A stretch of DNA of 64,000 nt from Minisyncoccia bacterium (GCA_038212075.1 JBBQUV010000002.1:7343-71342); one strand, 5' to 3'; positions 12,327 through 54,597 are shown, counted from the first letter of the stretch. Program-made: numbers and translations. Notes: generated from the letters alone by a model not told the origin.

Positions 12327-13427
12327 CTACTGATTCATCGGCATCACCAAGTACAAGAATGAAGCCTCTCCTGTTCCGCGAATAACAAGAGGTCGCCCAA
12401 TACCGCCGGAAGAGAGCGTGAGGTTGTCTGCGGTAATAAGGGAAAGAGGCGCCGCAAGGTAGCGGTGGTTAAACGAAAGCTCAATACCTTCACCTGATAC
12501 AGCACCGAGCAACTCTTCATTAGACTCACCAATATCTGCATTTTTTGAAACGAAAGAAACCTTTTTATTTTTTACATCAAGCCCAAGACGCACTTTTTGG
12601 AAGGTGTCTGAAAACACCGATACGCGCCGTAGTGCCGCCTCAAAGTCCTTACGGAGTACTGTGGCCTCGGCATTGAATGTTTTTGGGATAATCTGCGTGT
12701 AGTCTGGATACTGAGCGGCAACAAGGCGTGTAGTGACAACACCGCCTTCCCAAGAAAAGGCACATTGGTGTTCATCAAGAGAGAGTTTTACCTCTCCGTC
12801 GGGAAGCGTCTGAAGAATATCAACTGCATTTTTTGCTGGAATAAGTACCGAAAATGGCTTCGTTGTTTTTTCTACTGGAATCTTTTTTTCAGCGAGACGG
12901 AAAGAATCGGACGCGACAGCTTTCAACATTCCACCCTCACCTGAAAGGTACACACTCGCGAGTTCGGGGCGTACTGTTGACGGAGAGGCACACGTAACAA
13001 CTGAACCAATAAGCTCTCGAAGAAGAGTTCCAGAAAGAGTAAGTGTTTTTTCCGGTGTGTCTGGAATAGGGATAATAGGAAAATCTTCTGCAGAAAGTGT
13101 TTTGATAGTACTTTTCCCTACTCCTGACGTCATGACAATTGTGTCCCCAGCATGCTCGAGAGTTACCGTACCAGAACCAAAAAGAGAACCGGCAACCTCT
13201 CGTAAGATATTCGCAGGAAGAACAGCGATTCCTGTTTTCTTTATAGATCCTTCAATACGAAGATCAATACCGGTTTCAAGATTCGTTGCTCTGAGTTTTA
13301 TTCCGTCGTCGCCTGCAACAATAGCAATTCCTGAAAGTGCGGCGAGTGTCGCAGATCGTCGTTCAGCAAATCGAGCGACCTGCTGAACAGCTTCCGTGAA
13401 TATCTTTTTTTCTATTGTAATAACCAT
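12327..13427 (-). CDS. dnaN: DNA polymerase III beta sliding clamp.
   Basis: 366 aa, N-terminus MVITIEKKIFTEAVQQV. Three-domain beta-clamp length. Directly downstream of dnaA. Confidence 0.85.
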   Translation of the reverse strand: MVITIEKKIFTEAVQQVARFAERRSATLAALSGIAIVAGDDGIKLRATNLETGIDLRIEGSIKKTGIAVLPANILREVAGSLFGSGTVTLEHAGDTIVMTSGVGKSTIKTLSAEDFPIIPIPDTPEKTLTLSGTLLRELIGSVVTCASPSTVRPELASVYLSGEGGMLKAVASDSFRLAEKKIPVEKTTKPFSVLIPAKNAVDILQTLPDGEVKLSLDEHQCAFSWEGGVVTTRLVAAQYPDYTQIIPKTFNAEATVLRKDFEAALRRVSVFSDTFQKVRLGLDVKNKKVSFVSKNADIGESNEELLGAVSGEGIELSFNHRYLAAPLSLITADNLTLSSGGIGRPLVIRGTGEASFLYLVMPMNQ

Positions 13428-13628: not shown

Positions 13629-14975
13629 TCATACCAACAAGCTACGCACGTCTTGAATCTCTTTAGCGAGTACTGCGTCGTCACCTACTTCCCTTTTTAT
13701 TTTCTCGCACGAGTGAATGACGGTGGTGTGGTCGCGCCCACCAAGCTTGGTACCGATGGTTGGATACGAAACACTGAAGTCTTCACGGAGAATATACATA
13801 ATTACCTGGCGCGGCCGCACCACTTCCTTCCGACGCGTCTTTTCGTAGATGCTTTCTTCGTCGATACCGTAGAATTCTGCAACTTTTGAGACCACGTTCT
13901 TAATAGAAACCGTTTTTGTGGGGCGTGAGAACGAACGGAGAGACTGACGAATCTCGGCGAGGTCGGGCGGCGTACCCCGCACTTGTGCGTGGCACACCAC
14001 CGAATTGATAACCCCCTCAAGTTCACGGATAGACCCCGGTACCGAAGTAGCGATGTATTCAATGACCTCTTCACTGATAGCGATGCCGTGTGCGGCAATC
14101 TTTTTTCGCACAATCGCGATGCGTGATTCAGTATCCGGTTCTCCAATATCAATCGTCATCCCGCTTGCAAGGCGTCCACGTAACCGTTCGGCAATGTCAG
14201 GGATGGCGGCGGGTGCTCTATCCGAGGAGAAAATAATTTGTTTGTTGTTGTCGTAGAGCGCATTAAAGAGGTGGAAGAGCTCTTCCTGCATTTTTTCTTT
14301 TTTAGAAAGGAACTGAATGTCGTCCATAATCAACAAATCGAATTGGCGATACTTTTCTTTGAAGCGGTTTGCCGTGCCCGCACCAATAGAATCGGTGTAA
14401 TCAACACCGAATTTTTCCGAAGTAAGGTAAAAAACTTTTCGATTTGGGTAGAGTTTCTTAAATTGGTTACCAATAGCTTGGATAAGGTGGGTCTTTCCTC
14501 TTCCTGTGTCTCCATAGAGAAAGAGCGGGTTGTAGGTGATGCCGGGTCGAGCGATTGCCGCCTCTGCCGCTTTGTACGCGAGTTCATTGAACGCACCGAT
14601 GACAAAGGTATCAAAGGTGTAGCGTGGGTTCAGGTTGTCACTTTTATTTATGTAGAACTCATCAAGCGGTAAACGATTTTCTTCTCGCACTTGGCGGATT
14701 TCTTTTGGTTTACGGCGATCATCTTTCACAATAAGGTATTCAATGTTGCGATACTCGTACGAAACGGAACGAATGATTTTAAGAAGAAGCGAATTAAACT
14801 TCTTTAGATACCAGTCGCGAAAAAATTGGCTTGGAACACCCACATATACGATACCGTCTTCAATTTTTACGATAGAGCTATCGCGAAACCATGTGTTGAA
14901 GTTGGCAGGGCTCACTGAAAGTTCTACCTGGGTTAGGGCGTGTTCCCAAAGCTCTCGAGGATCGGAACGATTCAT
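13629..14975 (-). CDS. dnaA: Chromosomal replication initiator DnaA.
   Basis: 448 aa. AAA+ Walker A GDTGRGKTHL and the C-terminal DNA-binding signature (DHTTVIHSCEKI). Confidence 0.95.
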   Translation of the reverse strand: MNRSDPRELWEHALTQVELSVSPANFNTWFRDSSIVKIEDGIVYVGVPSQFFRDWYLKKFNSLLLKIIRSVSYEYRNIEYLIVKDDRRKPKEIRQVREENRLPLDEFYINKSDNLNPRYTFDTFVIGAFNELAYKAAEAAIARPGITYNPLFLYGDTGRGKTHLIQAIGNQFKKLYPNRKVFYLTSEKFGVDYTDSIGAGTANRFKEKYRQFDLLIMDDIQFLSKKEKMQEELFHLFNALYDNNKQIIFSSDRAPAAIPDIAERLRGRLASGMTIDIGEPDTESRIAIVRKKIAAHGIAISEEVIEYIATSVPGSIRELEGVINSVVCHAQVRGTPPDLAEIRQSLRSFSRPTKTVSIKNVVSKVAEFYGIDEESIYEKTRRKEVVRPRQVIMYILREDFSVSYPTIGTKLGGRDHTTVIHSCEKIKREVGDDAVLAKEIQDVRSLLV

Positions 14976-15205: not shown

Positions 15206-15520
15206 ATGATGCCCCGCGGGCGCCGCCTTCCTCGCGCCGCCTTCCCTGCACTCCTGCGGGCAAAAAGGCTCTCTAGCCCTCATTTTGGGGTTTCTGTCGC
15301 TTCTGCCCCACGGGGTGGGTGTGCGGTGGTCATACCCAAAAAAGCCGTACCCCACTCGGTTGATCGGCATCTTTTGAAACGTCGAGTACTTTCCGTGCTT
15401 AAAAAGTGGTATGCCCCCCATATGGCACTTGTGGTGTATGCAAAGAATGGGAGCTCCACCCTTCCCTTCCGCATTATCCAGAGCGAACTTGAGGCACTTC
15501 TTGGTAAACTCACTGTATGA
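15206..15520 (+). CDS. rnpA: Ribonuclease P protein component.
   Basis: RnpA-like basic protein (RLSSPHFGVSVA..., KKAVPHSVDRHLLKRR). The likely start is MMPRGRR at about 15206, not the track start at 15152. Follows rpmH. Confidence 0.75.
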   Translation: MMPRGRRLPRAAFPALLRAKRLSSPHFGVSVASAPRGGCAVVIPKKAVPHSVDRHLLKRRVLSVLKKWYAPHMALVVYAKNGSSTLPFRIIQSELEALLGKLTV

Positions 15521-16254
15521 TTTCCTTTCTCTTCCACACTTATCTTTCCCTACCAATCTACAACCTTCTCATTTTTCTTGTTGGCATCATTCCAACAGGA
15601 GATGTGGGTGTCGCGGTTATTGTTGTGACGCTCGTGGTGAAGGCGGCAGTACTTCCCCTCTCTCTTTCAGCGGTTCGCACCCAGCGTTCGATGAAAGTTA
15701 TTGAACCTGAGTTGAAAGAAATAAAGGAAAAGTATAAAGACGACAAAGAAAAACAAGCAAAAGAAACGTTCGCCCTCTACAAAAAGTACAGCATCAACCC
15801 ATTTGCGAGCTTCGGTACACTTCTTATACAGCTTCCGATTCTACTCGCTCTCTACTGGGTATTTCGTGGAGAAGCACTTCCTACGATAGATGTAGCGTCG
15901 CTCTACCACTTCGTTGCTATCCCAACCGTCATATCCACGAACTTCCTCGGTATCTTTTCGGTAATACAAAAAAGTATTACTCTCGCTGTACTTGCGGCGA
16001 TAACGCAGTTTTTGCAGGCATATTTTGCTATCCCAACGCCGGCAAAAACCGAAAATGCAACCATGCAAGAAGATTTTGGCCGTGCCATGGCGATGCAAGC
16101 GCGGTTCGTCATCCCGCTTATTATTGGCCTTGTTGCCTATGAAACGTCAGGAGCCATCGCACTCTACTTCATAACGAGTAACGTCGTGATGCTTTTCCAG
16201 GAATTTTTAGTGCGTAGAACACCAGCAAAAATTTCCCCTCTAAAGACAGACTAG
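15517..16254 (+). CDS. yidC: Membrane protein insertase YidC/Oxa1 (short Gram-positive type).
   Basis: 245 aa and multi-TM. Conserved AVRTQRSMKVIEPELKEIKEKYKDD and the NP/FG region. Canonical rpmH-rnpA-yidC order. Confidence 0.85.
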   Translation: MISFLFHTYLSLPIYNLLIFLVGIIPTGDVGVAVIVVTLVVKAAVLPLSLSAVRTQRSMKVIEPELKEIKEKYKDDKEKQAKETFALYKKYSINPFASFGTLLIQLPILLALYWVFRGEALPTIDVASLYHFVAIPTVISTNFLGIFSVIQKSITLAVLAAITQFLQAYFAIPTPAKTENATMQEDFGRAMAMQARFVIPLIIGLVAYETSGAIALYFITSNVVMLFQEFLVRRTPAKISPLKTD

Positions 16255-17513
16255 AAACGATACGCCCAAAGTGAGTCGTCGCGTTTATTTACAAATGTCA
16301 GCGTGCTCTCGTTCGGGTCAACCGACAAAGAAATGGCGTCAATTGGTTCTTTGGTGAGTTCTGGCAGATTTGCTACGAGTGTCGCGGCGCGAGCGATAAG
16401 GTCAATTTTCCAAAGGCGATCGCTAAACGCGATTGTGCCCTGATACCACCCGTCGGGTAGTTTCCCCGAAGGGAGTGCTGTAGGCACGGCGCAGTATGCG
16501 CTTTGGTTGTCCGGAGACCACACACATTTTTCCGTAAGCGTTGCCACAGGAAGCGCTATGGTGGTGTGTGTTGCCGTATCGAACACACTAAGAGAAAGTG
16601 AACTGCCTGAAAGTGAACTTACAAGCACAAGTTTTCCAGAAGGACTTGGCAAGGCAGTAAGCCCCGGAAGAGGCCCCAGGATTTTGGTGAACGCCCCTGT
16701 TTTTCTATCAATCAAAAATGCGTATCCGTTTACAGAAGCCGAAGGTTTTGTATAGGCAAGAAGATTTGTTCCGGCAAATGAAACGTGGAGCGCTGAAAGA
16801 AGCGAGGTGAACACGGTTCCTCCGCCACTGCCGTCAGGTTTAGATATCGTCCCGACGGAACCGGAGGTGCTTGGCATAAAAGTGAACACTGTCTGTGTCC
16901 CCTGAGCAAGCACTTGCGAAAGGTCGCGCGCAAGGAACCTACCGTCCGTACCATCGGCCGGCAGTACATAGGTATCAATGTGCTCTGTTTTGTCCGGGTC
17001 AACCGTAAGGAAACGAATAAAAGCGTCGGATCCATCGGAGAGCCATGCTGTTTCCTGTACACCAGGCGCAGTGTGGTTAGTAAGGCGTACGCTCGTGCCC
17101 TGCATCACGTTATAGGTGTACATATTTCCACTCTGGCGATCTATGTAGCGTACTTCGGTGCGGAATGTCGGACCAGTATCAGTTGAAGTTGCATCAGTTG
17201 TTGAAGCAAGCGCGACCGGTGCCGTAGTGCTTGCGTTAATGATGAGCACTCCGTGAGCTACCGGTGACGACGTTATTTTAACTAAGTGAGGAGCAATAAG
17301 GGTGCCTGCAATGGGTGTGTCAGCAGTGTTCTGCGTTGTATCTGCTCCCTGTCCTCCTGAACTAGTGTCTTGGCTTGGTGTGCCAAACGGGTTAGCACCT
17401 GTGCCAGTCTGAGCAACGAGCCCACCACTTCCGTTAAAAAAGTAAAAGTACCCAACAACGATAAGGCCGAGAGCGACAATGGCGAGTGCGGCGATGGTAA
17501 GGGTGCGACGCAT
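16251..17513 (-). CDS. Secreted or membrane-anchored hypothetical protein, possibly a beta-propeller (TolB/PD40-like repeats).
   Basis: N-terminal TM/signal sequence, a Ser/Thr/Gly-rich linker, and repeats with WSPDN/DGSD-type motifs. It is the last gene of the minus-strand T4SS-like island. Confidence 0.4.
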   Translation of the reverse strand: MRRTLTIAALAIVALGLIVVGYFYFFNGSGGLVAQTGTGANPFGTPSQDTSSGGQGADTTQNTADTPIAGTLIAPHLVKITSSPVAHGVLIINASTTAPVALASTTDATSTDTGPTFRTEVRYIDRQSGNMYTYNVMQGTSVRLTNHTAPGVQETAWLSDGSDAFIRFLTVDPDKTEHIDTYVLPADGTDGRFLARDLSQVLAQGTQTVFTFMPSTSGSVGTISKPDGSGGGTVFTSLLSALHVSFAGTNLLAYTKPSASVNGYAFLIDRKTGAFTKILGPLPGLTALPSPSGKLVLVSSLSGSSLSLSVFDTATHTTIALPVATLTEKCVWSPDNQSAYCAVPTALPSGKLPDGWYQGTIAFSDRLWKIDLIARAATLVANLPELTKEPIDAISLSVDPNESTLTFVNKRDDSLWAYRF

Positions 17514-17520
17514 ATTTTTG

Positions 17521-18366
17521 TTATTGACACTCCGCGGTTAGCACGTACGTTGCCCCTGCACACGCTGGCGGTATGGCCAGCGGGCGTAGCGGCGAACTTG
17601 AGTTTTTATCGATACACCAATTTTGCTGTGAGGTTCCTGCTGGGCACTGAATCGTCGGGCAACTCTTGAGATCATTTGCAGGACACGCTTGGCTAGATTT
17701 TACTTTAGGTGTGCAGGAAATATAATTATACGTTCCATAACTACATTTATAGCCCCCAAGAAAATTTGTTTCGGTAACATTGTTTCCTTGAGCATCAGCA
17801 CATACATGGTTGGCGTCTGCACCGCCGGGGGTCTTTTCGCACTGAGCGATTTGTGGGTCACACGAAGCCGCATCGCATTTAAGCAATGTGTCGCCCTGTT
17901 TTAGGGGCGTTGATGACGCGAGCGCATCCGCATTTTGTTGCGACTGAGTCTGTGCAGGCTGGGTTCCTGTCGGTGTAAGGCCGCCGGCGTCGATATTCAG
18001 ATTCAATATGTTTGGGTTGATAACCGTAAAGACAATATACGGAGAAAGTACCAACAGAAGGCCAAGGAGTGCAGTAGTGATGATATGTTTTGCTTCTTCT
18101 ATTTTTGCAAAACCACTATCGCCCATGGTGTACATAACTCCCCCCCGCACAAGTTGTAGTACCGTTAGCACTACTGCTATCCCAATAGTAATTTTATAGA
18201 GTGCATTGAAGAAATTTGGGAGGCTCCCTGCCTTTGCCGCGTCTGAAAAAACAGGAATGTCAGTGAGCGGCACAAAAGCAGTTGGGGTAGAAGCAAGGGC
18301 AATTGATGGGATACCAATGAGTACCACTAAAAAGCCAATAAAGATGAAGCTAGAGCGATTGTTCAT
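17521..18366 (-). CDS. T4SS pilin-like protein (TrbC/VirB2-like topology) fused to a cysteine-rich C-terminal domain.
   Basis: A signal peptide, then two hydrophobic helices (LYKITIGIAVVLTVLQLV...ALLGLLLVLSPYIVF) as in VirB2/TrbC-like pilins, then a Thr/Gln-rich linker. The C-terminal domain of about 130 aa has roughly 14 Cys (CDAASCDPQIAQCEK...CADAQ...CSYGTYNYISC...CPANDLKSCPTIQCPAG...WC...ACAG...AECQ). Confidence 0.5.
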   Translation of the reverse strand: MNNRSSFIFIGFLVVLIGIPSIALASTPTAFVPLTDIPVFSDAAKAGSLPNFFNALYKITIGIAVVLTVLQLVRGGVMYTMGDSGFAKIEEAKHIITTALLGLLLVLSPYIVFTVINPNILNLNIDAGGLTPTGTQPAQTQSQQNADALASSTPLKQGDTLLKCDAASCDPQIAQCEKTPGGADANHVCADAQGNNVTETNFLGGYKCSYGTYNYISCTPKVKSSQACPANDLKSCPTIQCPAGTSQQNWCIDKNSSSPLRPLAIPPACAGATYVLTAECQ

Positions 18367-19343
18367 AGGCCAAAGAAGTTAGTGCCATTTGTTTGCCCAA
18401 AATGCACCGCAAGGGCAGCCTGCCCTGACTGATATGAACCATTTTGCGATGCCTGTGCGGAAAGTGCGGCGGTACCAGGGGTATCGCCTGTAGTTCGTAC
18501 GGTAATAATTGGATCGCTTCCGCTCACTTCCCCGTTCACGCTCCACGTAAATGCAGTCTCCCCTGAGAAGAAATAGGGAACGGCACGAAACGCATCTTCA
18601 CCGCCGTTCATTGAGAAAGAAGTTCCTATTGCCATATCGAAATTTGGTCCAGCAAGGGGGCTACTATGATAAATCACCATCAACGGGTCAACGGGCGCAA
18701 CGGTAATCGCAGTGTGTGCCGCCACACTACCATCTGGTGCTGAAACGGTGAGCGAAACATCGGTGTCGCGGTAGCGTATAGGTGCCGTTGCAGAAAGAAC
18801 CGAATGCCCAATACCTGACTGAGCGGTAAGTAGTTGATTACCTACTTTCCATGTATAGATGAGTGTTTCAGGTGCAAGTAATCCCTTGGCATTTCTAAGC
18901 TCTGGAAGTGCAATAAAACGGAGTCGACCCTCAGAAGCAATAAGATTTGCTCCTGCGTAAAAAGGATGGGTTGTCGACATCGGCTCCATCACAAGCGCCA
19001 CGCTCGCCGGACGGATGACTACTGTTTTTTGATACTTTCCTTGGAGCGATTCTATGGACACCACAATAGTGTCTACCGCTCCTCCCGCTCCAACTTGGAA
19101 CGCCGCTCCTTGTGAACCACTTCCCTTACTCAAGACCGTGCCATTTGCTGATATGGTGACAACAGCAGTTGCAAGGTCAACAAGGGTGCTTTGTGGAGTG
19201 ATCGTAACCGTTTCGTACGGTGCAGGGTACTGGGGAAAAATCCCAACCGTAAGCGGGTCGGCTCCGAGCATCTGAGCGTGCACTGGTATGGTGCAGGCAA
19301 GAATGGCAACACAGCTTCCTAAGAAAAATCCCCAATGTCGCAT
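18363..19343 (-). CDS. Secreted hypothetical protein in the T4SS-like island (signal peptide; probably beta-rich).
   Basis: N-terminus MRHWGFFLGSCVAILACTIPVHAQ looks like a signal peptide. No recognisable family motif. Confidence 0.4.
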   Translation of the reverse strand: MRHWGFFLGSCVAILACTIPVHAQMLGADPLTVGIFPQYPAPYETVTITPQSTLVDLATAVVTISANGTVLSKGSGSQGAAFQVGAGGAVDTIVVSIESLQGKYQKTVVIRPASVALVMEPMSTTHPFYAGANLIASEGRLRFIALPELRNAKGLLAPETLIYTWKVGNQLLTAQSGIGHSVLSATAPIRYRDTDVSLTVSAPDGSVAAHTAITVAPVDPLMVIYHSSPLAGPNFDMAIGTSFSMNGGEDAFRAVPYFFSGETAFTWSVNGEVSGSDPIITVRTTGDTPGTAALSAQASQNGSYQSGQAALAVHFGQTNGTNFFGL

Positions 19344-19392
19344 AGATAAAGTATACCGCCTCCATGCACATCATCGAAAAGTGCACTGGGTA

Positions 19393-20217
19393 CTAAACGA
19401 TGTACTTCATAATTCCGGAGGCATGCATTTTTTCAAGTGCTCCGTTGAATAGTTTGACGATTTTCTTTTCCTTATAGAACGCCATTAGTACGATAATGGT
19501 ATTTGCAGGGATAATTTGTAGAAACGGTATAATTTCAATAAGAATTGCAATAAAAAGGCGTTTCCAAAGCCACTTAATTACGGCTTTTTTCCACCAGCCG
19601 CCGCTAATTTTATTCCACGTCCACAACGTTAAGATGGCGCCGAGCACAATCCCTAAAAAAGAAGCAAGAATTACTCCAATACCTGTTAAATCTGCAGGTA
19701 GATCAAGAATATCTTTAGCAAGACCAACACTAAACATGAAAATAGGGAACGAAGGTTTGGCTGGCGGTGCCTCGGTCGCCAATTTTTGAGCATCAGTTGT
19801 ATGGAATTCCTCTCCTTTCTGTCTGAAGTCTTCCGCAATATCATCTAAGGTTTTGTGTATATGTGCACGTACGAGTTGAGGACTTACTCCATTTATGGAA
19901 TAGCGGGATCGCGAGGTAGTGACTTCGGACTCGCTTTCAGTTTCTTCTTCATATTCAGATTCTTCCTCTTCGGAATCTTGTGATTGTGTAGAAGAACGTA
20001 GTTGCTGGAACCGTCGTGTATTTCGTCCGTAGCGTGCAATTCCTGATTCAGTTTCAGCCGCACCAGCCGCCGCTCCCTCAGACGTTGCCGCACCCGCGGC
20101 TCCTTCAGCAGCGCCGGCTGCTCCAGTGGCAGCCAATCCTTCTGCGGCCGCTCCCCCTACAACCGCTCCTTCCGCCGCCCCACCAGCAACCGCTGCTGCA
20201 ACGATGAGTGGTGGCAT
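19393..20217 (-). CDS. Membrane protein with a low-complexity Ala/Gly-rich, acidic N-terminal region and C-terminal TM helices.
   Basis: N-terminus (GAAEGAx)n, then SEEEESEYEEETESESE, then a C-terminal hydrophobic segment with Trp-rich amphipathic stretches. T4SS island member. Confidence 0.4.
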   Translation of the reverse strand: MPPLIVAAAVAGGAAEGAVVGGAAAEGLAATGAAGAAEGAAGAATSEGAAAGAAETESGIARYGRNTRRFQQLRSSTQSQDSEEEESEYEEETESESEVTTSRSRYSINGVSPQLVRAHIHKTLDDIAEDFRQKGEEFHTTDAQKLATEAPPAKPSFPIFMFSVGLAKDILDLPADLTGIGVILASFLGIVLGAILTLWTWNKISGGWWKKAVIKWLWKRLFIAILIEIIPFLQIIPANTIIVLMAFYKEKKIVKLFNGALEKMHASGIMKYIV

Positions 20218-20220
20218 AGA

Positions 20221-22050
20221 TTATTGCGCTCCCCCGCCGCCTTCCGCGTCTAACCGATCTTTTTCACGCTTTATAGAAAGGAGTTGTGAAGGATCGGAAG
20301 TGATAATTTGGTCTTCGGTGTATGACGCCACTATTTTTATGGCAACGTGTTTAAGCCCTGCAAAAAAGAGCCCCTCCCCTACTCCGGATTCAAGAAGCAG
20401 ATATTTTTCCTCGTCGGTAAGATTGAACGTTTTCTGGAGCACATCAATAGTGGTCGGTGATTGTTTTAATAAAAGCTGGATAGAAGAGTTTGTCAGAATG
20501 GGGCGCCCGTATGGTGAGGTTAAGAAGTCTTCAACGTCTTGGGTGATAGTTGCAACACCAAGGAAGTATTTGCGTCCGCGTTTTGCAAGCGAATAGAGGA
20601 ATGATGCCGTATCTTCCGACTTCATCATCCACCACGCTTCGTCGATAACAAGCAGACGTTTTTTGAGCTCACGACGAATGGCATTCCAAATGAAGTGCGT
20701 GATGATATACATCGCCACCGGTTTTAGTTCGTCTTCCATATCTCGCACCGAGAACACAATGAATTGTTTGTTGATGTCGACGTTTGTTGGCTGGTTTAAG
20801 AAACCTGACCACGTACCATGGGTATATTTTGACAGACGTTGCACCAGCGACTCACTTCCTTCCATGCCAGAAAGCACGGCTTCAAAGTCGGAGAGGAGTG
20901 GTGGCTCTACACCGCTAAAGTCACGATCGCCTGAAATATCTTTTAAGGCATAGGTCTCACTAATGGCACGGTCAACAATAGCGTCTTCCTCTGGCGTGAG
21001 CCCGCCAAGCATAATGCGGAAGAGTCCAACAAGGGTGATGATGTTAGAGCGAAGAATATCGCCTGGTTCCTCCCCTTCTCGTACTACCGGAAGATCAAAG
21101 GGGTTGATGTGGTGTTCACTCGAAAGAGAAATATCGAACATGCGTCCACCAGCCGCTTCCGCAAGATATTCATACTCACGTTCTGGGTCAATCACAATCA
21201 CGTCGGTATCAAACATAAGCGAACGAAGAATTTCGAGTTTCACCGCAAATGACTTTCCGGAACCAGACTTTGCAAAGGTTACGGAGTTGTAGTTTTCAAG
21301 CGAGAATCGATCAAAAAGAATGAGCGAAGAGTTATGGCGGTTAATGCCAAAGAGAATGCCGTGGTCACTCGTAAGATCAAATGATACAAACGGAAAGATA
21401 GAAGAAAGTGGCGAAGAGTTGAGTTTTTGATGCACATTCAATTCATCAAGTTCCAGTGGAAGTGTGGAGCGGAAACCTTGTTCCTGTTGAAACAGTGCTG
21501 GCTTTGTATATACGAGCTTCGCATCCAAAATACCGCGAATTTCACCCTCAACCTTATCCAATTCTTCTTTTGAGTTTGCGTAAAGGGTCATATAGAGCCC
21601 AATCTCAAAGAGTTTTTCCTGCACTTGTTGGAGTTGATCGCGCAGATTTTCAATATCTTGGTATGCCGTATCAAGCATTGGGTCGCGTACCAATCCTTTT
21701 TGTTCGCGTTCTGCTATCTGGCTCTGCACTTCCGCGACTTTCTTTTGAAATTGACGAAGCACCTCACCTGTTTCAAGTGGGTGTATGAAAATACTGATAT
21801 CAAGTACTTGGTCGAGGTTAATGATGGGCGTAAACCAACTATCAGTCAAAAAGCGTGGATAGGAAATAGTGTAGTAGGAACGGGCAAATTTTTCGCCAAG
21901 TTCAAGTTCGCGAGCACTTACTTTGAGCGCCGCCGGCGCAATCATGTCGGCTAAATCAAGTGCGCCCTGCGCATAAATATCACGCGGCAAAATCGGCGTA
22001 ATTTTCGGGTCTTCTTTTTTCCCGCGATTAAGAAAATCAAGTAATGCCAT
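20221..22050 (-). CDS. virB4: VirB4/TrbE/PrgJ-family T4SS ATPase, C-terminal NTPase part.
   Basis: 609 aa. Walker A AKSGSGKSF and Walker B LLVIDEAWWMM, with VirB4-like length and arrangement. Confidence 0.75.
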   Translation of the reverse strand: MALLDFLNRGKKEDPKITPILPRDIYAQGALDLADMIAPAALKVSARELELGEKFARSYYTISYPRFLTDSWFTPIINLDQVLDISIFIHPLETGEVLRQFQKKVAEVQSQIAEREQKGLVRDPMLDTAYQDIENLRDQLQQVQEKLFEIGLYMTLYANSKEELDKVEGEIRGILDAKLVYTKPALFQQEQGFRSTLPLELDELNVHQKLNSSPLSSIFPFVSFDLTSDHGILFGINRHNSSLILFDRFSLENYNSVTFAKSGSGKSFAVKLEILRSLMFDTDVIVIDPEREYEYLAEAAGGRMFDISLSSEHHINPFDLPVVREGEEPGDILRSNIITLVGLFRIMLGGLTPEEDAIVDRAISETYALKDISGDRDFSGVEPPLLSDFEAVLSGMEGSESLVQRLSKYTHGTWSGFLNQPTNVDINKQFIVFSVRDMEDELKPVAMYIITHFIWNAIRRELKKRLLVIDEAWWMMKSEDTASFLYSLAKRGRKYFLGVATITQDVEDFLTSPYGRPILTNSSIQLLLKQSPTTIDVLQKTFNLTDEEKYLLLESGVGEGLFFAGLKHVAIKIVASYTEDQIITSDPSQLLSIKREKDRLDAEGGGGAQ

Positions 22051-22052
22051 AG

Positions 22053-22751
22053 CTACTGTGGTCGATCATACACTGCCGGACTCGCTCCTTGCTGGTGTAT
22101 CGGACTTTCAAGCTCACCCAAGTTGAACGAACGGTACAAAAGTTCAATTACTTCTTCGGTACCAAGTGCCGCGGCACGCACGCCTGAACCCGAGAGCCCA
22201 CCAGCAACAAGCGACATGCGTTGCTCAAGCTGTATGCGGTGTTCATCAAAGGATGTTGTAAATTCAGTCGCTCCTGACCCTGACGAGTGACCAAGAAATG
22301 GCAATGATGTCTTTATGGCACTGATACCGGGAGCACTGTATGGCACGATGACGTAGAACGTTTTTGCCATAATGTTTGCGGCATCGGAAAATCCGCGTAC
22401 AAATTGTATATACTCGCGTACCTGAATTTTCATTAGCTCTGTTCCCTGGAGCGGTTCGCGCTCAGCCAGAAGTGACAAGTACGGACGGATATCCATTTTG
22501 CGAGAGTGCACTACAATTTGGATTGAAAAATCAAGGGTATTTAAAAAGTTTTGGAATCCGCCAATAATTCCACGCTGTTCGTCTTCTGATTTCAGCGCGA
22601 AGTTGACTGACGAACACATAAGTACGCCGCGATAACCACCGTCTTTAAGGAGAATAACGCCGTTGCGTACTTCTTTCACAGGAACAAATGTTTGTGTGGC
22701 TTTTGTGTCAGGCATATTACTGATCGAGCTGTTCGTTACTGCGTATGTCAA
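22053..22751 (-). CDS. VirB4 N-terminal domain-like protein, encoded as a separate ORF directly upstream of the ATPase part.
   Basis: 232 aa. VPVKEVRNGVILLKDGGYRGVLMCSSVNFALKSEDE resembles the N-terminus of Gram-positive VirB4 homologs (PrgJ/TcpF: I.LKDGSY..V.E...INF.L). Its stop codon abuts the start codon of 20221..22050. Confidence 0.5.
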   Translation of the reverse strand: MTYAVTNSSISNMPDTKATQTFVPVKEVRNGVILLKDGGYRGVLMCSSVNFALKSEDEQRGIIGGFQNFLNTLDFSIQIVVHSRKMDIRPYLSLLAEREPLQGTELMKIQVREYIQFVRGFSDAANIMAKTFYVIVPYSAPGISAIKTSLPFLGHSSGSGATEFTTSFDEHRIQLEQRMSLVAGGLSGSGVRAAALGTEEVIELLYRSFNLGELESPIHQQGASPAVYDRPQ

Positions 22752-23145
22752 GCGACCACGCTAGGTCGTGAAGCTTCCCGCGAGTGAGTCCAAGTTTTGC
22801 ACGAGCGTTTTTATCTGTCTTCGGTGCCGCTTTCGGCGTCATTGCCTCAATCTCTTTGTCGGTTTTAGGTATTTTTTTCCATAAATACAGCCTCCCTCCC
22901 GTGAAGTATACAAACCCTGCTTCCAAAATATCTTCAAAAGGCTTGTTGTTGACGCGGTAGAACGCCAGTGCACCTGTAAGTCCAGCAACAGGAAGCGCAA
23001 CAAGGACAGCAAAAAGTAACGGAAGGTAGAAAAAAGCGATAGCGCATACGCCCGCACCGCCCGCAATATAAATAAATTGCTTCAGCGTGAATGGTCCGAA
23101 AATCTTATCTTCAATCTCAATGAATTGAGGAACTTGGTACTCCAT
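22717..23145 (-). CDS. PrgI/TcpE-family (VirB3-like) T4SS membrane protein.
   Basis: MEYQVPQFIEIEDKIFGPFTLKQFIYIAGGAG... followed by two TM helices. This matches the PrgI family consensus (VP..i..edkifG.lTlRQ). It sits immediately upstream of virB4, as in Gram-positive conjugation loci. Confidence 0.6.
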   Translation of the reverse strand: MEYQVPQFIEIEDKIFGPFTLKQFIYIAGGAGVCAIAFFYLPLLFAVLVALPVAGLTGALAFYRVNNKPFEDILEAGFVYFTGGRLYLWKKIPKTDKEIEAMTPKAAPKTDKNARAKLGLTRGKLHDLAWSLDIRSNEQLDQ

Positions 23146-23183
23146 TCCTTTAGTATATCAGCCCGCACACGCACATTGCGTCG

Positions 23184-23777
23184 TTAATGACTGCTAGAAG
23201 ACGCGGGCTTGCTTGAGCCACTTGCTGACTTACCCGCACCTCCACCACTGCCAGCAAATTTTCGAATTTGCACGCCAAGCCATCCTATAAGAAATGGAAA
23301 TCCAAACAACAACTCAAGAGCACCCATACTCATTCCAATTGAAGCACCAAACCCAACCGTGTGGCCAGTAAGTGCCGCCGCACCAGAATAAGAAGCTGCC
23401 CCAGCCCCCGCGATACCTGCCGCCGCCGCGCTCCCTGCCCCAGCGAGTGTCCAGAGAGCAACAGCTCCTGCCCCGCCAGTAAACGATGCCCCACTTGCGT
23501 ACCCACTTCGCATAAGGGAAAAGAGAGACTTTTTTTCAACAGAAGGTACCGCCGCGGTTTGCGGCGGTACAGTATTCGGCTGAACACCTACCGACTCATT
23601 TGGTTGCACTGCCCCTCGCTCACGTAATTGCTGGAGACGTTCCGCACGTACCGTTACCGTTTCGGGGTCTGGTGGAGACACAACGGGATTACTTTCAACC
23701 GTTACCGGTTGTTCTTGCGTTACTTCGTCTTGGTGAGGGTTCTGTTCTAGACCTCGTTCGGGGGTTGATTCAGCCAT
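23184..23777 (-). CDS. Small membrane protein with Gly/Ala-rich hydrophobic helices. A second pilin-like protein is possible.
   Basis: 197 aa. Polar Pro/Gln-rich N-terminus, then two Gly/Ala-rich hydrophobic segments and a Ser/Gly tail. Confidence 0.35.
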   Translation of the reverse strand: MAESTPERGLEQNPHQDEVTQEQPVTVESNPVVSPPDPETVTVRAERLQQLRERGAVQPNESVGVQPNTVPPQTAAVPSVEKKSLFSLMRSGYASGASFTGGAGAVALWTLAGAGSAAAAGIAGAGAASYSGAAALTGHTVGFGASIGMSMGALELLFGFPFLIGWLGVQIRKFAGSGGGAGKSASGSSKPASSSSH

Positions 23778-23799
23778 TACCCACTAGAATACCACTTCT

Positions 23800-24657
23800 C
23801 TATTCGGGTGTTTCGCGGTACGGATCAACACCATAGTTTTTAAGTACCGCATGGAGTGAATCTTTTGTTGTTGGCGCGGCGGTTGTTTGAGGGTCTTGTG
23901 CCGGCGTTCCAGCTGGCGTTGGTCGCCATTGCGGTTGTACAGGCGGCATCTGTGGAGGTTCAGGCAGTATTGGTGTTGGTAGCGGAACTGGAACAGAAAC
24001 GGGTTGTATGTAAGGAGCCATAGACGGCAGTTGTGCAGGAAGCGGTGTAGGTACGCTTGGCACAGACGGTATCGAAGAATATGACGCAGGTGGCATCGTT
24101 GGCATAGGAAGCCCTGTTTCTTTTGGAGCAAGGGGTTCATATCGCGGCATAGTTGGTGCGGATTCTTGGGGGATCTCCGGTTGTTTAATCGGGGCACTTG
24201 CTTGTGCAAAAATTGCAGGCGGTGGCGGTGGTTGCTTTACCGGCATGGGCGCTACATATAAAGGAGCGCTTTCTTCGGGGATAGGCGTTGCGACCGGCGT
24301 GGGTGCGGGTATGGGTTCCGGTGTTGGTTCTTCTTGAGGCTCCGCCGGTGGCGCATTACGTATTTCATCGCGAAGTACCTTGAAAACTCGCTCGTTCAAC
24401 GCACTAATGATTGCGTCTGCGCTTGCGTCCGGTACCCCCATTTGGGCAAGTTCAGACTGGAACTGCACGGGACTTGAAAGCCCAAGGAGCATATTTGTTG
24501 CCGCCTGCGCGATTAGTCCAACCGTGTCTACATGCAGTCCGTAGGTTCCTGCCAGTTCTTGTAATAATTCAAAGAGTTTTGTGCTCGCAATATACGCACG
24601 TACCGGTTCCGGTAGTTTTTTATATGCATCACCCATTTGTTCAGGAGTAGGATTCAT
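23800..24657 (-). CDS. Proline-rich hypothetical protein.
   Basis: 285 aa. Helical N-terminal domain of about 100 aa, then long PxP-rich low-complexity sequence. Confidence 0.4.
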   Translation of the reverse strand: MNPTPEQMGDAYKKLPEPVRAYIASTKLFELLQELAGTYGLHVDTVGLIAQAATNMLLGLSSPVQFQSELAQMGVPDASADAIISALNERVFKVLRDEIRNAPPAEPQEEPTPEPIPAPTPVATPIPEESAPLYVAPMPVKQPPPPPAIFAQASAPIKQPEIPQESAPTMPRYEPLAPKETGLPMPTMPPASYSSIPSVPSVPTPLPAQLPSMAPYIQPVSVPVPLPTPILPEPPQMPPVQPQWRPTPAGTPAQDPQTTAAPTTKDSLHAVLKNYGVDPYRETPE

Positions 24658-24662
24658 ACGTT

Positions 24663-26933
24663 TTATATTCTGCGTCCGCGATTACGCGTGTTATCTCCAG
24701 CCGCCCCTCCCGCACTGCGGTAGTTATTGGCATTACTCGACTGCGTTCCACCTCCGGCAGGCGCGGCGGGTGGTGCTTTTACCTTCCAGTTCATTTGACC
24801 GGCGGAGAATGGGTTTTTGGCAAAATATGCTTCGATATCTTCACGCTGCTTCCCTGTCGTCGTCAGAAGTTCAGTACGTAATTGCTCAAGCTGTTTCGGA
24901 TTGAATTTATTTTTTGTGAGTGCGGCTTGAATAGCAGATGCATCAAAGGCTTTCAGAAGTTGTTTGTTTTTAACAATAACCTCAGCCTCAACTTTCATTT
25001 TCGTTTCCGCATTCATGTTGTTCCAAATCTGGAGGGACTCAGGATGACCGCGCTCAATTCTTCCGGCAGGCGTGTTTTGTCGCGCCATTTTACGGAGCGA
25101 ATCTGACAAGTCGTCACTTTTATCCAATGCTTCCAATTGGGTCTCCTTAAGCGCACTCTTAAATTCCGTAGTGTCATGCTGGATAATTCTCTTGAATTTC
25201 TCGTTGTCTGCCTTTGCCAATTGAACCAAATCCTTAGTAGTGAGATCTTTCGCGTTTGATTCATCGTAGCGTGCAAAACGAGCTGTACCCATTTTATGTT
25301 GAACATCTTCAGGCACTTCCTTGCTATCCATCAGTTTTGCAAATTTCTCCGGACTCAATACCTCACCAAGTTTTTTAACTTGCTCGTCGCTCATAGTCTT
25401 AATAGCCTCCTCAAGACCGTGCAAGTTCATCTCACGAGCGCGACCCTCAGCTTCTTCCTTATCTGCTGGGTTACCGCTTTGTGCCTTATCGAGAGCATCT
25501 TTCAAATCCTGCCCCTCAAGTGCAAGGTGCAATTCTTTGCCGCGTTCTTTCAGTTCTTTCTCACGATCATCATGTGATTGGAAACCTCCAATTTTTGCGC
25601 CAGAGGCACCCTTTAGACCAGAATTGATACCATCATCAACGGCTGTGCCCGCAAACCCAACTGCCCACTTCCCCACTTTGCCACCAAGTGTTGTTGGCTT
25701 CCAGAGGGCGTGTTTCTGCGCACGTTGCCCCGCTTTTACGTTGTATGCCTTTCTGAGTGCCGCGGCACCACGGCCAACAGTTTCGCGACCAAGAACGGCA
25801 AAAGGATACGACACCGCTTTCGTAGCAATGTTTGTGGCAAACGCCGCTCCATAGGCACCCATCTCTTTTGCCACCGTAAGTGCGGTAATCAGAAAGCCAA
25901 TGACAAGAGCGAAAAGAAACAGTGTGGAGAATGTCCCTGGCCCGCTTGGGTTAAACATGTCGGTAAGAGGGGCGCTAAAAAGATCGGGATTAGACGCGGC
26001 AACACCTTCGCCTATTTTGAGACCGACAAACACTAAGAGAAGAAGCACGGGAGCAAAAAAGGACTGCGCAAGAAGCGTATCCCACCATTTTTTGGCATAG
26101 CCCTCAAGAAACGGCACGGCAAGACCCGCAAAACCGATAGGTGAAAGCACCATAAGAAATACCAGCACCACCGCGCGAGTCATAAGCATGATGGCCATCG
26201 CTATCAATACCATCATTAACACCAACTCAACGACAGAGAGGCCCAGATACCCTGTAAGTCCAAAGTCGTATTTAAACCCGGGGTGTATTACGGTATTTAC
26301 TTTACTGTCACCCATTATCATTCCTGCAACTCCATAGTTCGGATTTGCAGCACAGCTTGTATCTAAAAATGACTTTTTCAAACAACCACTCCCATCTTGG
26401 TTGATAGATTGGCTGTAAAGAGCCGCACTTAAAACGTTCGACACATCAATAATTGCTTGAGACGCGAGAAGACTGAAGTTTAAAAGCACGGCAAAAATGA
26501 TAAGGCGTGGGAGCGTTTTTTTCACTTCGTAGCCATGGATGTCAAGAATGGTTGCAACGCCCATAAAGACGAAACCAAATATGAGTCCGATGTTGGCTAC
26601 ATCGCGAAGTACACCCCAGCCCGCGTAGATACCTCCATTTTTCCCAAGGAAAGCGGCAAATCCAAAAACAGTTTCCGAAATAATAATATTAAAAAGAAAT
26701 GCGGTAATGGAAAGAAAAACACCAATAAGTTCATAAATGGCATACCCAATACCGCTAAACGCGCAGGTAATTGGGCTACCGACACAGCCGACAAAATTAA
26801 ATAAAGCATCCGTTGCTCCAGCATGAGCAACTATTGGTACTTCAAGAATCAATACCAGTACAAAGACAGATAAAATGCGCCAAGGCCCTTTACCGTAGGT
26901 GGCGAAGAGTTTTTTAAAGGTAGTCCTCACCAT
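24663..26933 (-). CDS. VirB6/TrbL-like polytopic membrane protein with a large C-terminal charged coiled-coil domain.
   Basis: 756 aa. At least six TM helices in the first 400 aa or so, then a hydrophilic Lys/Glu-rich region. Domain architecture and position within the T4SS island support the call. Confidence 0.5.
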   Translation of the reverse strand: MVRTTFKKLFATYGKGPWRILSVFVLVLILEVPIVAHAGATDALFNFVGCVGSPITCAFSGIGYAIYELIGVFLSITAFLFNIIISETVFGFAAFLGKNGGIYAGWGVLRDVANIGLIFGFVFMGVATILDIHGYEVKKTLPRLIIFAVLLNFSLLASQAIIDVSNVLSAALYSQSINQDGSGCLKKSFLDTSCAANPNYGVAGMIMGDSKVNTVIHPGFKYDFGLTGYLGLSVVELVLMMVLIAMAIMLMTRAVVLVFLMVLSPIGFAGLAVPFLEGYAKKWWDTLLAQSFFAPVLLLLVFVGLKIGEGVAASNPDLFSAPLTDMFNPSGPGTFSTLFLFALVIGFLITALTVAKEMGAYGAAFATNIATKAVSYPFAVLGRETVGRGAAALRKAYNVKAGQRAQKHALWKPTTLGGKVGKWAVGFAGTAVDDGINSGLKGASGAKIGGFQSHDDREKELKERGKELHLALEGQDLKDALDKAQSGNPADKEEAEGRAREMNLHGLEEAIKTMSDEQVKKLGEVLSPEKFAKLMDSKEVPEDVQHKMGTARFARYDESNAKDLTTKDLVQLAKADNEKFKRIIQHDTTEFKSALKETQLEALDKSDDLSDSLRKMARQNTPAGRIERGHPESLQIWNNMNAETKMKVEAEVIVKNKQLLKAFDASAIQAALTKNKFNPKQLEQLRTELLTTTGKQREDIEAYFAKNPFSAGQMNWKVKAPPAAPAGGGTQSSNANNYRSAGGAAGDNTRNRGRRI

Positions 26934-26936
26934 ACG

Positions 26937-28388
26937 TTAGTGCAGGATCGTACTGCACGATGTGGCAATGTTTTTCATTTGCGTATAGAGCGACGGGGCA
27001 GAATTGTCTTTGGTATCTTGGGACTCAGTCTCTGCATAAGCTAGGTCAGTAGCGGAAGGCATAGAAGGGTCATGGAGCGCATTTTGAAATTCTATTCCTA
27101 CATCCGCAGTTTTTGTAGCATCAGATCCGGCGGCAGTGGCGTCCGTCTGGACTTTTTGTAAAAGGCTAAGAGCAGTTGTTGCTTTAGTGAGCGCCGCGCC
27201 AGCATCGCTCAGTGTTTTTGTTACGAGCGCGGTATTTTGGTCATTTGCTCCAGTCACACAACTGGTAAGTGCTGTTTGTGCGGTCTTTGCTATCGACTGA
27301 ATCGTCTGCCAATTTGTTTGAAACTGCGTTATGTCTTTTGTTTGAGACGCAATAGCATCGCTTACATTTCCGGAAATATTTCCTGCGGCACCGTTGTACT
27401 GAGAGGGGTCGGTTGCCTTATCGATAAACCCGTTACCGCCCGAAGAAACGGAAGAAACACCAGAGAGCCCACTGCCACCAAGTACATTACTGGTAAGTTG
27501 AGACATAAGCGCACTTACTATTTCGTTAAATTCGTCTGCCGTCACAAGAGTGTCCCCTGTAAGACCAAGTGTTTTGTTTATCTGTGATTGAATCACGGAT
27601 CCGGGTGTTTGGACGGGGCCACATCCAGAGCCAGAGGTGTCACGTGCGCCGAGTTGTACTGTGGCCTCGGAACCCGAGGAACCGCCACTCGGGCAATTGC
27701 GCCACGAAAGGAATCCATTGCCCCAATCGAGCTCGGTCTTTTGAACGGTTTTTGCCGTTTCAGTTTGATTCGATAGCTCCTCCTGGCCAAGACGCTGAGC
27801 GCCCAACGGATTGTTTTCCGGATTTGCAACAGCAGAAAAGAATGCGCTAATACCACCCTTAGAAAAATCGCCACCAAGAAACGCCGTATCGTCAGGAGTT
27901 ACTTTATTTAATGTGTAGGGGTGTGATTGGGTAAACGAATCTTTACTGGTTGAAAGATAGTATTTGCTCCCTACGCTTTGGGCAATTTGGCTTTGAAATG
28001 GCGAACGAAGCGCGGGGTCGCTTGCGAGTTTGGCGAGGAAACTACCTGCAACACGGTCGCTCACTTGCTGAAGGGTGCTGGTAAGGTCGGTTACGAAGGC
28101 CGGCGAGCCTTGGAATCCAGAATTAATCCAATTCACCATACTTTTGGTCATCGTTTGGATAGCCATTTTGCTCACCATCCACGCAAGAGGGTCAAGGGCG
28201 AACTCTTTATTATTCGTCGCAAATTGGAGCGCCTTCGTGGCGATCGCGATGATATGGGTAGCCCCTGTTTGAATTTCGGTTACGATATCTTCAACCGGGT
28301 ACGCATATGCCGGTTTTGGGATGCTCCAGAATGAACCGCTAAGGAGCAAAAGTGCGATGAGCGCAGATGCGAGTGATCGTTTTTTCAT
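26937..28388 (-). CDS. Secreted hypothetical protein (signal peptide; Ser/Thr/Gly-rich).
   Basis: N-terminus MKKRSLASALIALLLLSGSFWSIPKPAYA. T4SS island member. Confidence 0.4.
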   Translation of the reverse strand: MKKRSLASALIALLLLSGSFWSIPKPAYAYPVEDIVTEIQTGATHIIAIATKALQFATNNKEFALDPLAWMVSKMAIQTMTKSMVNWINSGFQGSPAFVTDLTSTLQQVSDRVAGSFLAKLASDPALRSPFQSQIAQSVGSKYYLSTSKDSFTQSHPYTLNKVTPDDTAFLGGDFSKGGISAFFSAVANPENNPLGAQRLGQEELSNQTETAKTVQKTELDWGNGFLSWRNCPSGGSSGSEATVQLGARDTSGSGCGPVQTPGSVIQSQINKTLGLTGDTLVTADEFNEIVSALMSQLTSNVLGGSGLSGVSSVSSGGNGFIDKATDPSQYNGAAGNISGNVSDAIASQTKDITQFQTNWQTIQSIAKTAQTALTSCVTGANDQNTALVTKTLSDAGAALTKATTALSLLQKVQTDATAAGSDATKTADVGIEFQNALHDPSMPSATDLAYAETESQDTKDNSAPSLYTQMKNIATSCSTILH

Positions 28389-29401
28389 GGTGTTGTGGAA
28401 GTGGCTTCGGAGAGAGCTGTCGCTGTTTTATAGAAGCCGTAGCCAGGTTCGCTTGGCTGGAACATGACTCCCCCCTCGGTAAATAGATGGCCTACAGAGA
28501 TGATAGTTTTCGTAAAGTTTGCAGAGTCTTTGTCTGCAGAACCAAGTCCAAGCATCCCGCGGATAGGATCGGTATCGATTGACGCCAAGTCTCCCACTGT
28601 TGCACCAAAACGAGCCGTCGCATTCACCAGCGCAAGGTGAGCTTGTGCCATTTCTTGGGGAACGGAGACAGCAACAAGTGCCTTAGCAGTATCAAGGTAA
28701 GACGTTGAAATTGTCTTCAGGTGTGCGATCGCTGTTTTGTCATTTCGCTCTACCGCGTCGGCAAAATACACGTCTGCATGGTAAGGCACGTTTGCGCGGT
28801 GTTGTTTAAATGCCTGTTCTACTTGTATAGCGTATGACTTTAGTGCAGTACTTCCCGTACCCGATACCTTTATTTGTGATGCAGAAAACGCGTCTATTTG
28901 TGTACGTGTTTTAAGAAGGTCACCAATGGCTCCCTGCACAAAGGTTTGCATCTGGGCGGCAGTTGGTTTGGTATCGCCGCGACTCACAACGTAGTTGTTG
29001 AAGAAGAGTTTAGAAAACTGGTCGGTAAGTGAACCGGGCGTCGCGTTGTTTCCCGGAATGTCGCTTGCAACTATTCCCGGCGTTGTTGTCGCGGTCGTAG
29101 CGACCCCGCCGTAGTGAGCGGTGGCAAGCCCTTTAGCTACCGCGTCGCCATCGGTTAGGTCAGCACGAACGGAATGTGCATTGTTTGGGTCTGTCCCATA
29201 TAACGCTTCTTCCCAGTCAGGGAGCCCATCGCTGTCAGAGTCTTTGGCGGCATACGCTTTCAGAAGATTATCGGTAGAACCGGCGTTCACCAATGTCGTA
29301 CTACCTGTATGACCGGAAAGAATGTATGCACCAACGATGATTACTATCGCAATGAGTAGCGATGCAGAGAGAATCGTTTTTCGTGAGTCAAGAAAAGCCA
29401 C
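28385..29401 (-). CDS. Membrane-anchored hypothetical protein with an acidic Ca-binding-like motif (DSDSDGLPDWEE). It may be a VirB8-like bitopic protein.
   Basis: N-terminal TM helix plus an extracytoplasmic domain. First gene of the island. Confidence 0.35.
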   Translation of the reverse strand: MAFLDSRKTILSASLLIAIVIIVGAYILSGHTGSTTLVNAGSTDNLLKAYAAKDSDSDGLPDWEEALYGTDPNNAHSVRADLTDGDAVAKGLATAHYGGVATTATTTPGIVASDIPGNNATPGSLTDQFSKLFFNNYVVSRGDTKPTAAQMQTFVQGAIGDLLKTRTQIDAFSASQIKVSGTGSTALKSYAIQVEQAFKQHRANVPYHADVYFADAVERNDKTAIAHLKTISTSYLDTAKALVAVSVPQEMAQAHLALVNATARFGATVGDLASIDTDPIRGMLGLGSADKDSANFTKTIISVGHLFTEGGVMFQPSEPGYGFYKTATALSEATSTTP

Positions 29402-54595: not shown

Positions 54596-54597
54596 AC

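Follow-up and report, generated by a model that had tools for sequence, protein, structure and literature searches.

In Patescibacteria, type IV secretion system (T4SS) loci are chromosomal and are often near dnaA (Quinonero-Coronel et al., 2025, PMC12102498). Among the T4SS components of these bacteria, TrsD is the most abundant, with 2,272 homologues, 1,664 of which adjoin virB4, and it has no assigned function. TrsD is treated there as a separate component that is remotely homologous to the N-terminus of VirB4. Southlakia epibionticum has a TrsD homologue that is listed as essential, TrsD is not encoded beside virB4 in Gracilibacteria, and VirB3-VirB4 fusion proteins are mentioned (PMC12102498). 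In the R388 structure, the N-terminal domain of VirB4 is wrapped by VirB3 and mediates VirB4 dimer contacts (PMC9259494). Here, a virB4 gene pair of a Minisyncoccia bacterium is described. It is located in a stretch of 64,000 nucleotides (nt), called the window, and all positions are counted within it. The pair is very probably a real VirB4 of two cistrons that has been stable in evolution and lies in the chromosomal T4SS locus of a Patescibacteria member of the Paceibacteria type.

The locus resembles the published Patescibacteria systems in its lineage, in the TrsD-like gene directly upstream of virB4, in the adjacent PrgI/VirB3 gene, and in its apparently chromosomal position near dnaA. Nothing substantive sets the window apart from them. 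The window VirB4 groups with Patescibacteria VirB4 by its homologue lists. The account in PMC12102498 is silent on the neighboring VirB4 lacking the TrsD-equivalent region and on a clade in which the two pieces are fused.

The gene pair and its junction

The TrsD/TraD-like gene (22053..22715, minus strand) encodes 220 amino acids (aa) from its likely ATG and represents approximately the first 170-200 residues of a full-length VirB4. Next to it is a gene for an N-terminally truncated, TrsE-like VirB4 ATPase (20221..22050, minus strand; 609 aa from its ATG). At the junction (22050..22055, minus strand), the TAG stop codon (22055-22053) is followed by a 2-nt spacer, ct (22052-22051), and by the ATG that begins at 22050. 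The junction reads CAG TAG ct ATG GCA, in the wider context cga cca cag TAG ct ATG. The ATPase open reading frame (ORF) is in a different frame from the TrsD-like ORF, offset by 2. A sequence-only reading of the window had placed the stop directly before the ATG. The two genes are indeed adjacent, but they are separated by the spacer and by the change of frame. No Shine-Dalgarno-like sequence was found within 20 nt upstream of the ATPase ATG, and no slippery heptamer was found at the junction.

The upstream ORF had been described as 232 aa long. An ORF of this length is present (22053..22751), but it begins at a TTG at 22751 and overlaps the upstream PrgI gene. The ATG at 22715 is 1 nt past the PrgI stop. 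This ATG is the likely start, and 220 aa the likely length, because a database protein 100% identical to the TrsD-like product has 220 aa and because M1 is nearly invariant in the homologue alignment. Other genes of the operon, where examined, are spaced 1-8 nt apart from stop to start, with no clear Shine-Dalgarno sequences. Gaps of this size are normal in the operon, and therefore the TrsD/VirB4 junction carries no special signal.

Identity of the two pieces

Both ORFs were matched to the NCBIfam CD1110 VirB4 model, which has 752 positions. Residues 22-166 of the 232-aa version of the upstream ORF correspond to model positions 4-149 (E-value 3.7e-5), and residues 29-570 of the ATPase ORF correspond to positions 183-733 (382.8 bits, cutoff 325). 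Since these ranges are consecutive, the two ORFs complement each other and are not duplicates. The upstream ORF also matches positions 92-233 of the NCBIfam model VirB4_plasma. There are 7,349 database homologues of the N-terminal piece (N piece) and at least 8,000 of the ATPase piece, and with thousands of homologues both ORFs are real genes and not chance ORFs.

The VirB4 C-terminal domain (PDB 4AG5, E-value 1.4e-43) is found at aa 229-585 of the ATPase ORF. It contains the Walker A motif SGSGKS at aa 262-267 (21250..21267, minus strand) and the Walker B motif LLVIDE at aa 466-471 (20638..20655, minus strand). The ORF also aligns with TrwK residues 445-741 (E-value 1e-6) and matches Pfam P-loop_TraG (E-value 2e-25). 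Thus, the Walker A/B ATPase domain that the sequence-only reading assigned to this ORF is present. However, aa 1-228 (21367..22050, minus strand) also include, after a short tail of aa 1-28, the latter half of the N-terminal domain of VirB4. Weak Pfam matches to CagE_TrbE_VirB (aa 127-198) and TraC_F_IV (aa 118-199) are located in this part, and the N-terminal domain of TrwK spans residues 15-400 (PMC9259494). For these reasons the break is placed within the VirB4 N-terminal domain. Judging from the alignments, the split point is about one quarter of the way along VirB4, and not at the boundary with the ATPase domain, as had been proposed earlier. The 609-aa ORF covers positions 183-733 of the 752 in the model, so a complete N-terminal domain is not present on the same chain as the ATPase domain.

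The N piece has the precomputed annotation Pfam PF26593, TraC-like, and the local Pfam copy gave no match for it. TraC_F_IV was weakly matched by 21 of 58 N-piece homologues. A profile of the homologues found nothing meaningful among PDB sequences, and VirB4 was recovered only through fold comparison. For this comparison, an AlphaFold2 model of the N piece was used, with a predicted local distance difference test (pLDDT) score of 84.7. The top 14 PDB fold matches were all TrwK/VirB4 of R388, with probabilities of 0.98-1.0, and the next match had a probability of 0.16.

By its sequence relationships, the N piece is probably a member of the TrsD/TraD family. Among the 58 aligned N-piece homologues, 53 match the NCBIfam TrsD/TraD model (NF041427) at an E-value of 0.01 or lower (best 1.4e-11), and all 58 match the VirB4 N-terminus. 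The window protein has the features of the TrsD type: a length of 220 aa (the family has about 200-225 aa), homology to the VirB4 N-terminus, and a position between a VirB3-like gene and an N-truncated VirB4.

Conservation of the split

Examination of orthologous loci for the same split had been suggested as a check. With a single genome taken for each species, the scan yielded 80 loci, which all belong to Patescibacteria metagenome-assembled genomes; 79 of these hold both pieces. A stop codon terminates the N piece in every one of the 79 loci, and it is TAA in 55 of them. In 61 loci, the stop and the ATG are -4 to +10 nt apart. Relative frames 0, 1, and 2 occur in 30, 19, and 30 loci, respectively, and spacers of 52-468 nt are present in approximately 10. 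Five apparent fused orthologues were obtained with tblastn and were rejected; the alignment had run through an in-frame stop, and direct translation gave a stop in every case. Comparison of loci L001-L036 with the window gave identities of 81-89% for the ATPase piece and of 62-71% for the TrsD-like piece in the same genomes. The ATPase piece is unusually conserved for a cross-species comparison, and the two halves differ in evolutionary rate.

The length of the nearest homologues agrees with the loci. The best 120 of the 7,349 N-piece homologues are all stand-alone proteins of 203-225 aa. The best 120 of the at least 8,000 ATPase-piece homologues are also all stand-alone, with 595-617 aa and 84-93% identity. 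Those with a named source are nearly all from Patescibacteria/Paceibacteria, and one is labelled Bacillota. The conserved N-terminus MALLDF starts right at the ATG of the ATPase piece in the orthologues. In addition, a Logan contig (L081, run SRR19962015) is identical to window positions 21826-23325 (1,500 nt), including the junction, and it may derive from the same reads as the window.

These observations bear on the possibility that a sequencing or assembly indel has split a single VirB4 gene of about 830 aa. Two ORFs that are 2 nt apart in different frames could be produced in this manner, and a sister clade does possess fused relatives of 775-807 aa. An indel does not account for a stop that is found in 79 of 79 loci from independent assemblies and in all three frame relations, for 120 nearest homologues of each piece that all stand alone, or for a MALLDF N-terminus that is conserved at the ATG of the orthologues. 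The Logan contig, possibly from the same reads, is identical at the junction as well. An assembly error is ruled out because the split is universally conserved, and the chance that an indel created it is considered negligible.

Frameshifting or stop readthrough could instead yield a fused, full-length VirB4, either besides the two products or in their place. The two pieces are in the same frame in 30 of the 79 loci, often with just a stop and one codon between them, where readthrough would give a fusion, and fused forms work in the related clade. For a recoding signal, both the frame and the sequence would have to be conserved, which is true of neither: the frames are distributed 30/19/30 and there is no slippery heptamer. 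The dominant stop, TAA in 55 of 79, also argues against recoding, as do spacers of up to 468 nt that sometimes hold another gene. In two loci, L051 and L037, the spacers are 456 and 468 nt. In L051, an unrelated 119-aa 23S_rRNA_IVP/four-helix-bundle gene (4684-5043; Pfam E-value 1e-27) is inserted precisely at the junction of the TrsD-like gene with virB4, and L037 probably holds a similar insert in its 468-nt spacer. Programmed frameshifting goes with a conserved slippery site and a fixed frame relation. Neither was found here, where spacers range from -4 to 468 nt. Programmed recoding is thus ruled out by the variable frame and spacer and by the lack of a slippery site, and production of a fused VirB4 by any frameshift or readthrough is highly improbable. 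A split intein, with protein splicing, was also considered and dropped; the junction tails are short and have no extra domain.

Among the three explanations offered by the sequence-only reading, the genuine two-gene VirB4 is therefore retained, with 79 of 79 loci split, and the frameshift and the sequencing error are excluded.

Fused relatives and module boundaries

Fused, full-length VirB4 proteins of 775-807 aa are found in a sister clade, several members of which are named Candidatus Colwellbacteria. They account for 118 of the best 120 clusters. One of them, P0320, is a fused protein of 797 aa. Residues 1-213 of P0320 align with the N piece (40% identity). Residues 226-796 align with the ATPase piece from its aa 29 onward (56% identity). 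A linker of about 12 residues is left between the two modules. Alignment to full-length VirB4 had been another check suggested, and both ORFs are colinear with P0320 as well as with the CD1110 model. The resemblance of the upstream ORF to the VirB4 N-terminus, as claimed earlier, is supported by both comparisons.

In a rough neighbor-joining tree, the split and fused Paceibacteria forms are sister clades. The outgroups, Staphylococcus aureus TrsE and Streptomyces, were hand-chosen and are both split, and the direction, fission or fusion, is not decided by this tree. Two ATPase-only proteins of about 600 aa among the matches to P0320, P0409 and P0505, are 88% and 77% identical to P0320 and are nested within the fused, Colwellbacteria-type clade in the same tree. 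They may be recent secondary fissions or artefacts of gene calling or assembly.

The other boundary of the N-module can also be fused. In the region 3009-5830 of L084, from Streptomyces sp. BHT-5-2 plasmid p1 (NZ_CP081497.1), one open frame contains a PrgI/VirB3-like region (aa 19-96) and a TrsD-like region (aa 146-311). The N-truncated VirB4 of this plasmid overlaps the VirB3-TrsD frame by 4 nt. It is 35% identical to the window ATPase and has the same start point. The region is unannotated in the plasmid table. The NCBIfam model SCO6880_fam matches the window PrgI ORF, the window ATPase ORF, and some N-piece homologues.

From these sequence comparisons, the module order VirB3, N-module, ATPase is constant, and either boundary can be fused or split. 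The N-module of about 200 aa stands alone in the window clade, whereas the Colwellbacteria-type sister clade joins it to VirB4 and Streptomyces joins it to VirB3. It is conceivable, but doubtful, that the break point is an evolutionarily mobile module boundary with a functional meaning. A separate N-module might be loaded on a subset of VirB4 protomers, for example, a VirB3-bound 'central' set, or might serve as a regulated switch in the assembly of a T4SS on which epibiotic growth depends. If true, this would go beyond the published view of TrsD as a component without an assigned function.

A putative two-part VirB4 protomer

The most likely model is one in which the TrsD-like protein would bind the ATPase piece non-covalently and complete its N-terminal domain, giving a VirB4-like protomer. 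The TrsD-like module would probably also supply much of the surface that docks onto the membrane-embedded PrgI/VirB3. This docking is suggested by the wrapping of R388 VirB3 around the VirB4 N-terminal domain, by the constant module order, and by the Streptomyces VirB3-TrsD fusion. Translation of the ATPase possibly occurs by termination-reinitiation, as a 2-nt spacer without a Shine-Dalgarno sequence suggests. This would favor roughly equal amounts of both products.

The TrsD-like protein could alternatively be an independent accessory factor, such as an assembly chaperone or a regulator, that shares ancestry with the VirB4 N-terminus and is not a missing part of the protomer. TrsD is a separate component without an assigned function in PMC12102498 and lies away from virB4 in Gracilibacteria, and the N piece, at 62-71% identity, changes more quickly than the ATPase piece of the same genomes, at 81-89%. 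Yet the adjacent VirB4 lacks exactly the TrsD-equivalent region, fused relatives join both modules by a linker of about 12 residues, and the VirB3-TrsD-VirB4 order persists with fused and with split boundaries alike. An accessory role is therefore judged unlikely.

Several points weigh against the two-part VirB4. The window protein itself scores an E-value of only 0.066 (13 bits) with the TrsD/TraD model, far under the curated cutoff of 200; because this score is weak, the TrsD assignment rests on the homologues and on the reciprocal profile match. The fold match of the N piece to TrwK is moderate (TM-score about 0.46, E-value about 2e-3), and the aligned TrwK residues are not given by the tool. 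The location of the split in a flexible linker is only weakly suggested by an AlphaFold2 model of P0320, which has a pLDDT of 68 (53-60 in the junction region) and a predicted template modelling score (pTM) of 0.48. Binding of the TrsD-like protein to the ATPase piece or to PrgI is something that we infer. Finally, strict translational coupling is not required, since the two pieces are separated by 52-468 nt in approximately 10 of the 79 loci.

A two-part VirB4 has consequences for annotation. A pseudogene or frameshift label would be wrong for either gene, and TrsD-like VirB4 N-terminal module is a suitable name for the upstream 'hypothetical protein'. If TrsD and the short VirB4 together correspond to one canonical VirB4, TrsD would have a concrete structural role where a published function is lacking. 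The natural split, fused, and VirB3-fused variants are ready-made constructs for structural work. The current understanding of T4SS is unchanged by these findings.

The surrounding locus

The gene next to the pair encodes a PrgI-family (VirB3-like) membrane protein of 142 aa (22717..23145, minus strand; Pfam PF12666, E-value 5.3e-11), with two predicted transmembrane (TM) helices, one at aa 23 and one at aa 42. The small membrane protein encoded beside VirB4 is thus of the VirB3 type. The VirB3-TrsD-VirB4 core is part of a tightly packed operon (16251..29401, minus strand) that encodes mostly membrane or secreted proteins, as indicated by the ORF map and hydropathy. A 756-aa protein with eight predicted TM segments (24663-26933, minus strand) may be VirB6-like. 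A 483-aa protein (26937-28388, minus strand) has a hydrophobic N-terminal segment, possibly a signal peptide. Several further operon proteins have one or a few TM segments. Pfam and NCBIfam scans gave no match for most proteins of the operon, and so a T4SS function for the flanking genes is only presumed; these may be divergent VirB6-like or other T4SS parts. The operon as a whole is taken to be a chromosomal T4SS-like locus. It probably belongs to the chromosomal T4SS that has been reported as essential for the epibiotic lifestyle of Patescibacteria.

The genes dnaA (13629-14975, minus strand; Pfam Bac_DnaA, E-value 1e-61), dnaN (12327-13427, minus strand; Pfam DNA_pol3_beta domains), and yidC (15517-16254, plus strand; Pfam 60KD_IMP, E-value 1e-39) were also identified. 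Since they are within 3 kb of the operon, the T4SS-like locus appears to be at the replication-origin region, a position that has been reported for some Patescibacteria. Among the ORFs scanned, a subset of those in the window, none carried a relaxase domain. Type IV pilus genes are present elsewhere (53381-56349, minus strand), encoding a PilB-type ATPase (T2SSE, E-value 8e-126) and a PilC-type platform protein (T2SSF, E-value 9e-58).

Comparison with known systems

The same split is found in the staphylococcal TrsC-TrsD-TrsE system of pGO1/pSK41-type plasmids (MPF_FATA, pGO1 subclass). In S. aureus pSR01 (NZ_CP048644.1; L082), which is of the pGO1/pSK41 type, the N-piece profile matches a 222-codon frame between the VirB3-like trsC and TrsE (E-value 1.4e-9). 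TrsE of pSR01 has 672 aa, begins with MAILKK (MALLDF in the window), and aligns to the 609-aa ORF from about residue 31. The gene order, a VirB3-like TM protein, a TrsD of about 220 aa, and a VirB4 of about 610-670 aa, is shared with the window, and the split point is identical. The pIP501 genes TraD-TraE are presumably equivalent to TrsD-TrsE. The staphylococcal system differs in being plasmid-borne and conjugative and in having a spacer of 14-20 nt with a Shine-Dalgarno sequence, and its ATPase is about 24% identical to that of the window. In contrast, the window locus appears to be chromosomal and beside the origin, its 2-nt spacer has no Shine-Dalgarno sequence, and no relaxase was seen nearby among the scanned ORFs.

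Within L082 2190-2890 of pSR01, no ATG, GTG, or TTG precedes 2486 in the trsD frame (2222-2887). One stop separates this frame from trsC, which shares its phase. A different frame has an ATG at 2214, and seven consecutive A residues follow at 2220-2226. The plasmid gene table does not list trsD. Possible explanations are an indel or pseudogene, a non-canonical start, and slippage.

Single-chain VirB4 proteins include TrwK of R388, the CD1110-family and PrgJ-type proteins of Firmicutes, and the Colwellbacteria-type fused proteins of Patescibacteria. The two window ORFs jointly span the whole of such a protein, in order. The ATPase-domain fold and the Walker motifs are shared, and the N-piece fold matches TrwK. 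In the window, by contrast, the chain is interrupted within the N-terminal domain, about a quarter of the way along. The VirB3-VirB4 fusions and the Streptomyces VirB3-TrsD fusion have the same order of VirB3, N-module, and ATPase as the window, where all three modules are separate genes.

Beyond the sequence-only reading, the N piece probably belongs to the known TrsD/TraD family, the arrangement is one published for Patescibacteria, the split is inside the N-terminal domain, and short gaps are normal in the operon. The two-gene VirB4 arrangement is already known, and the window is a typical member of the published arrangement.

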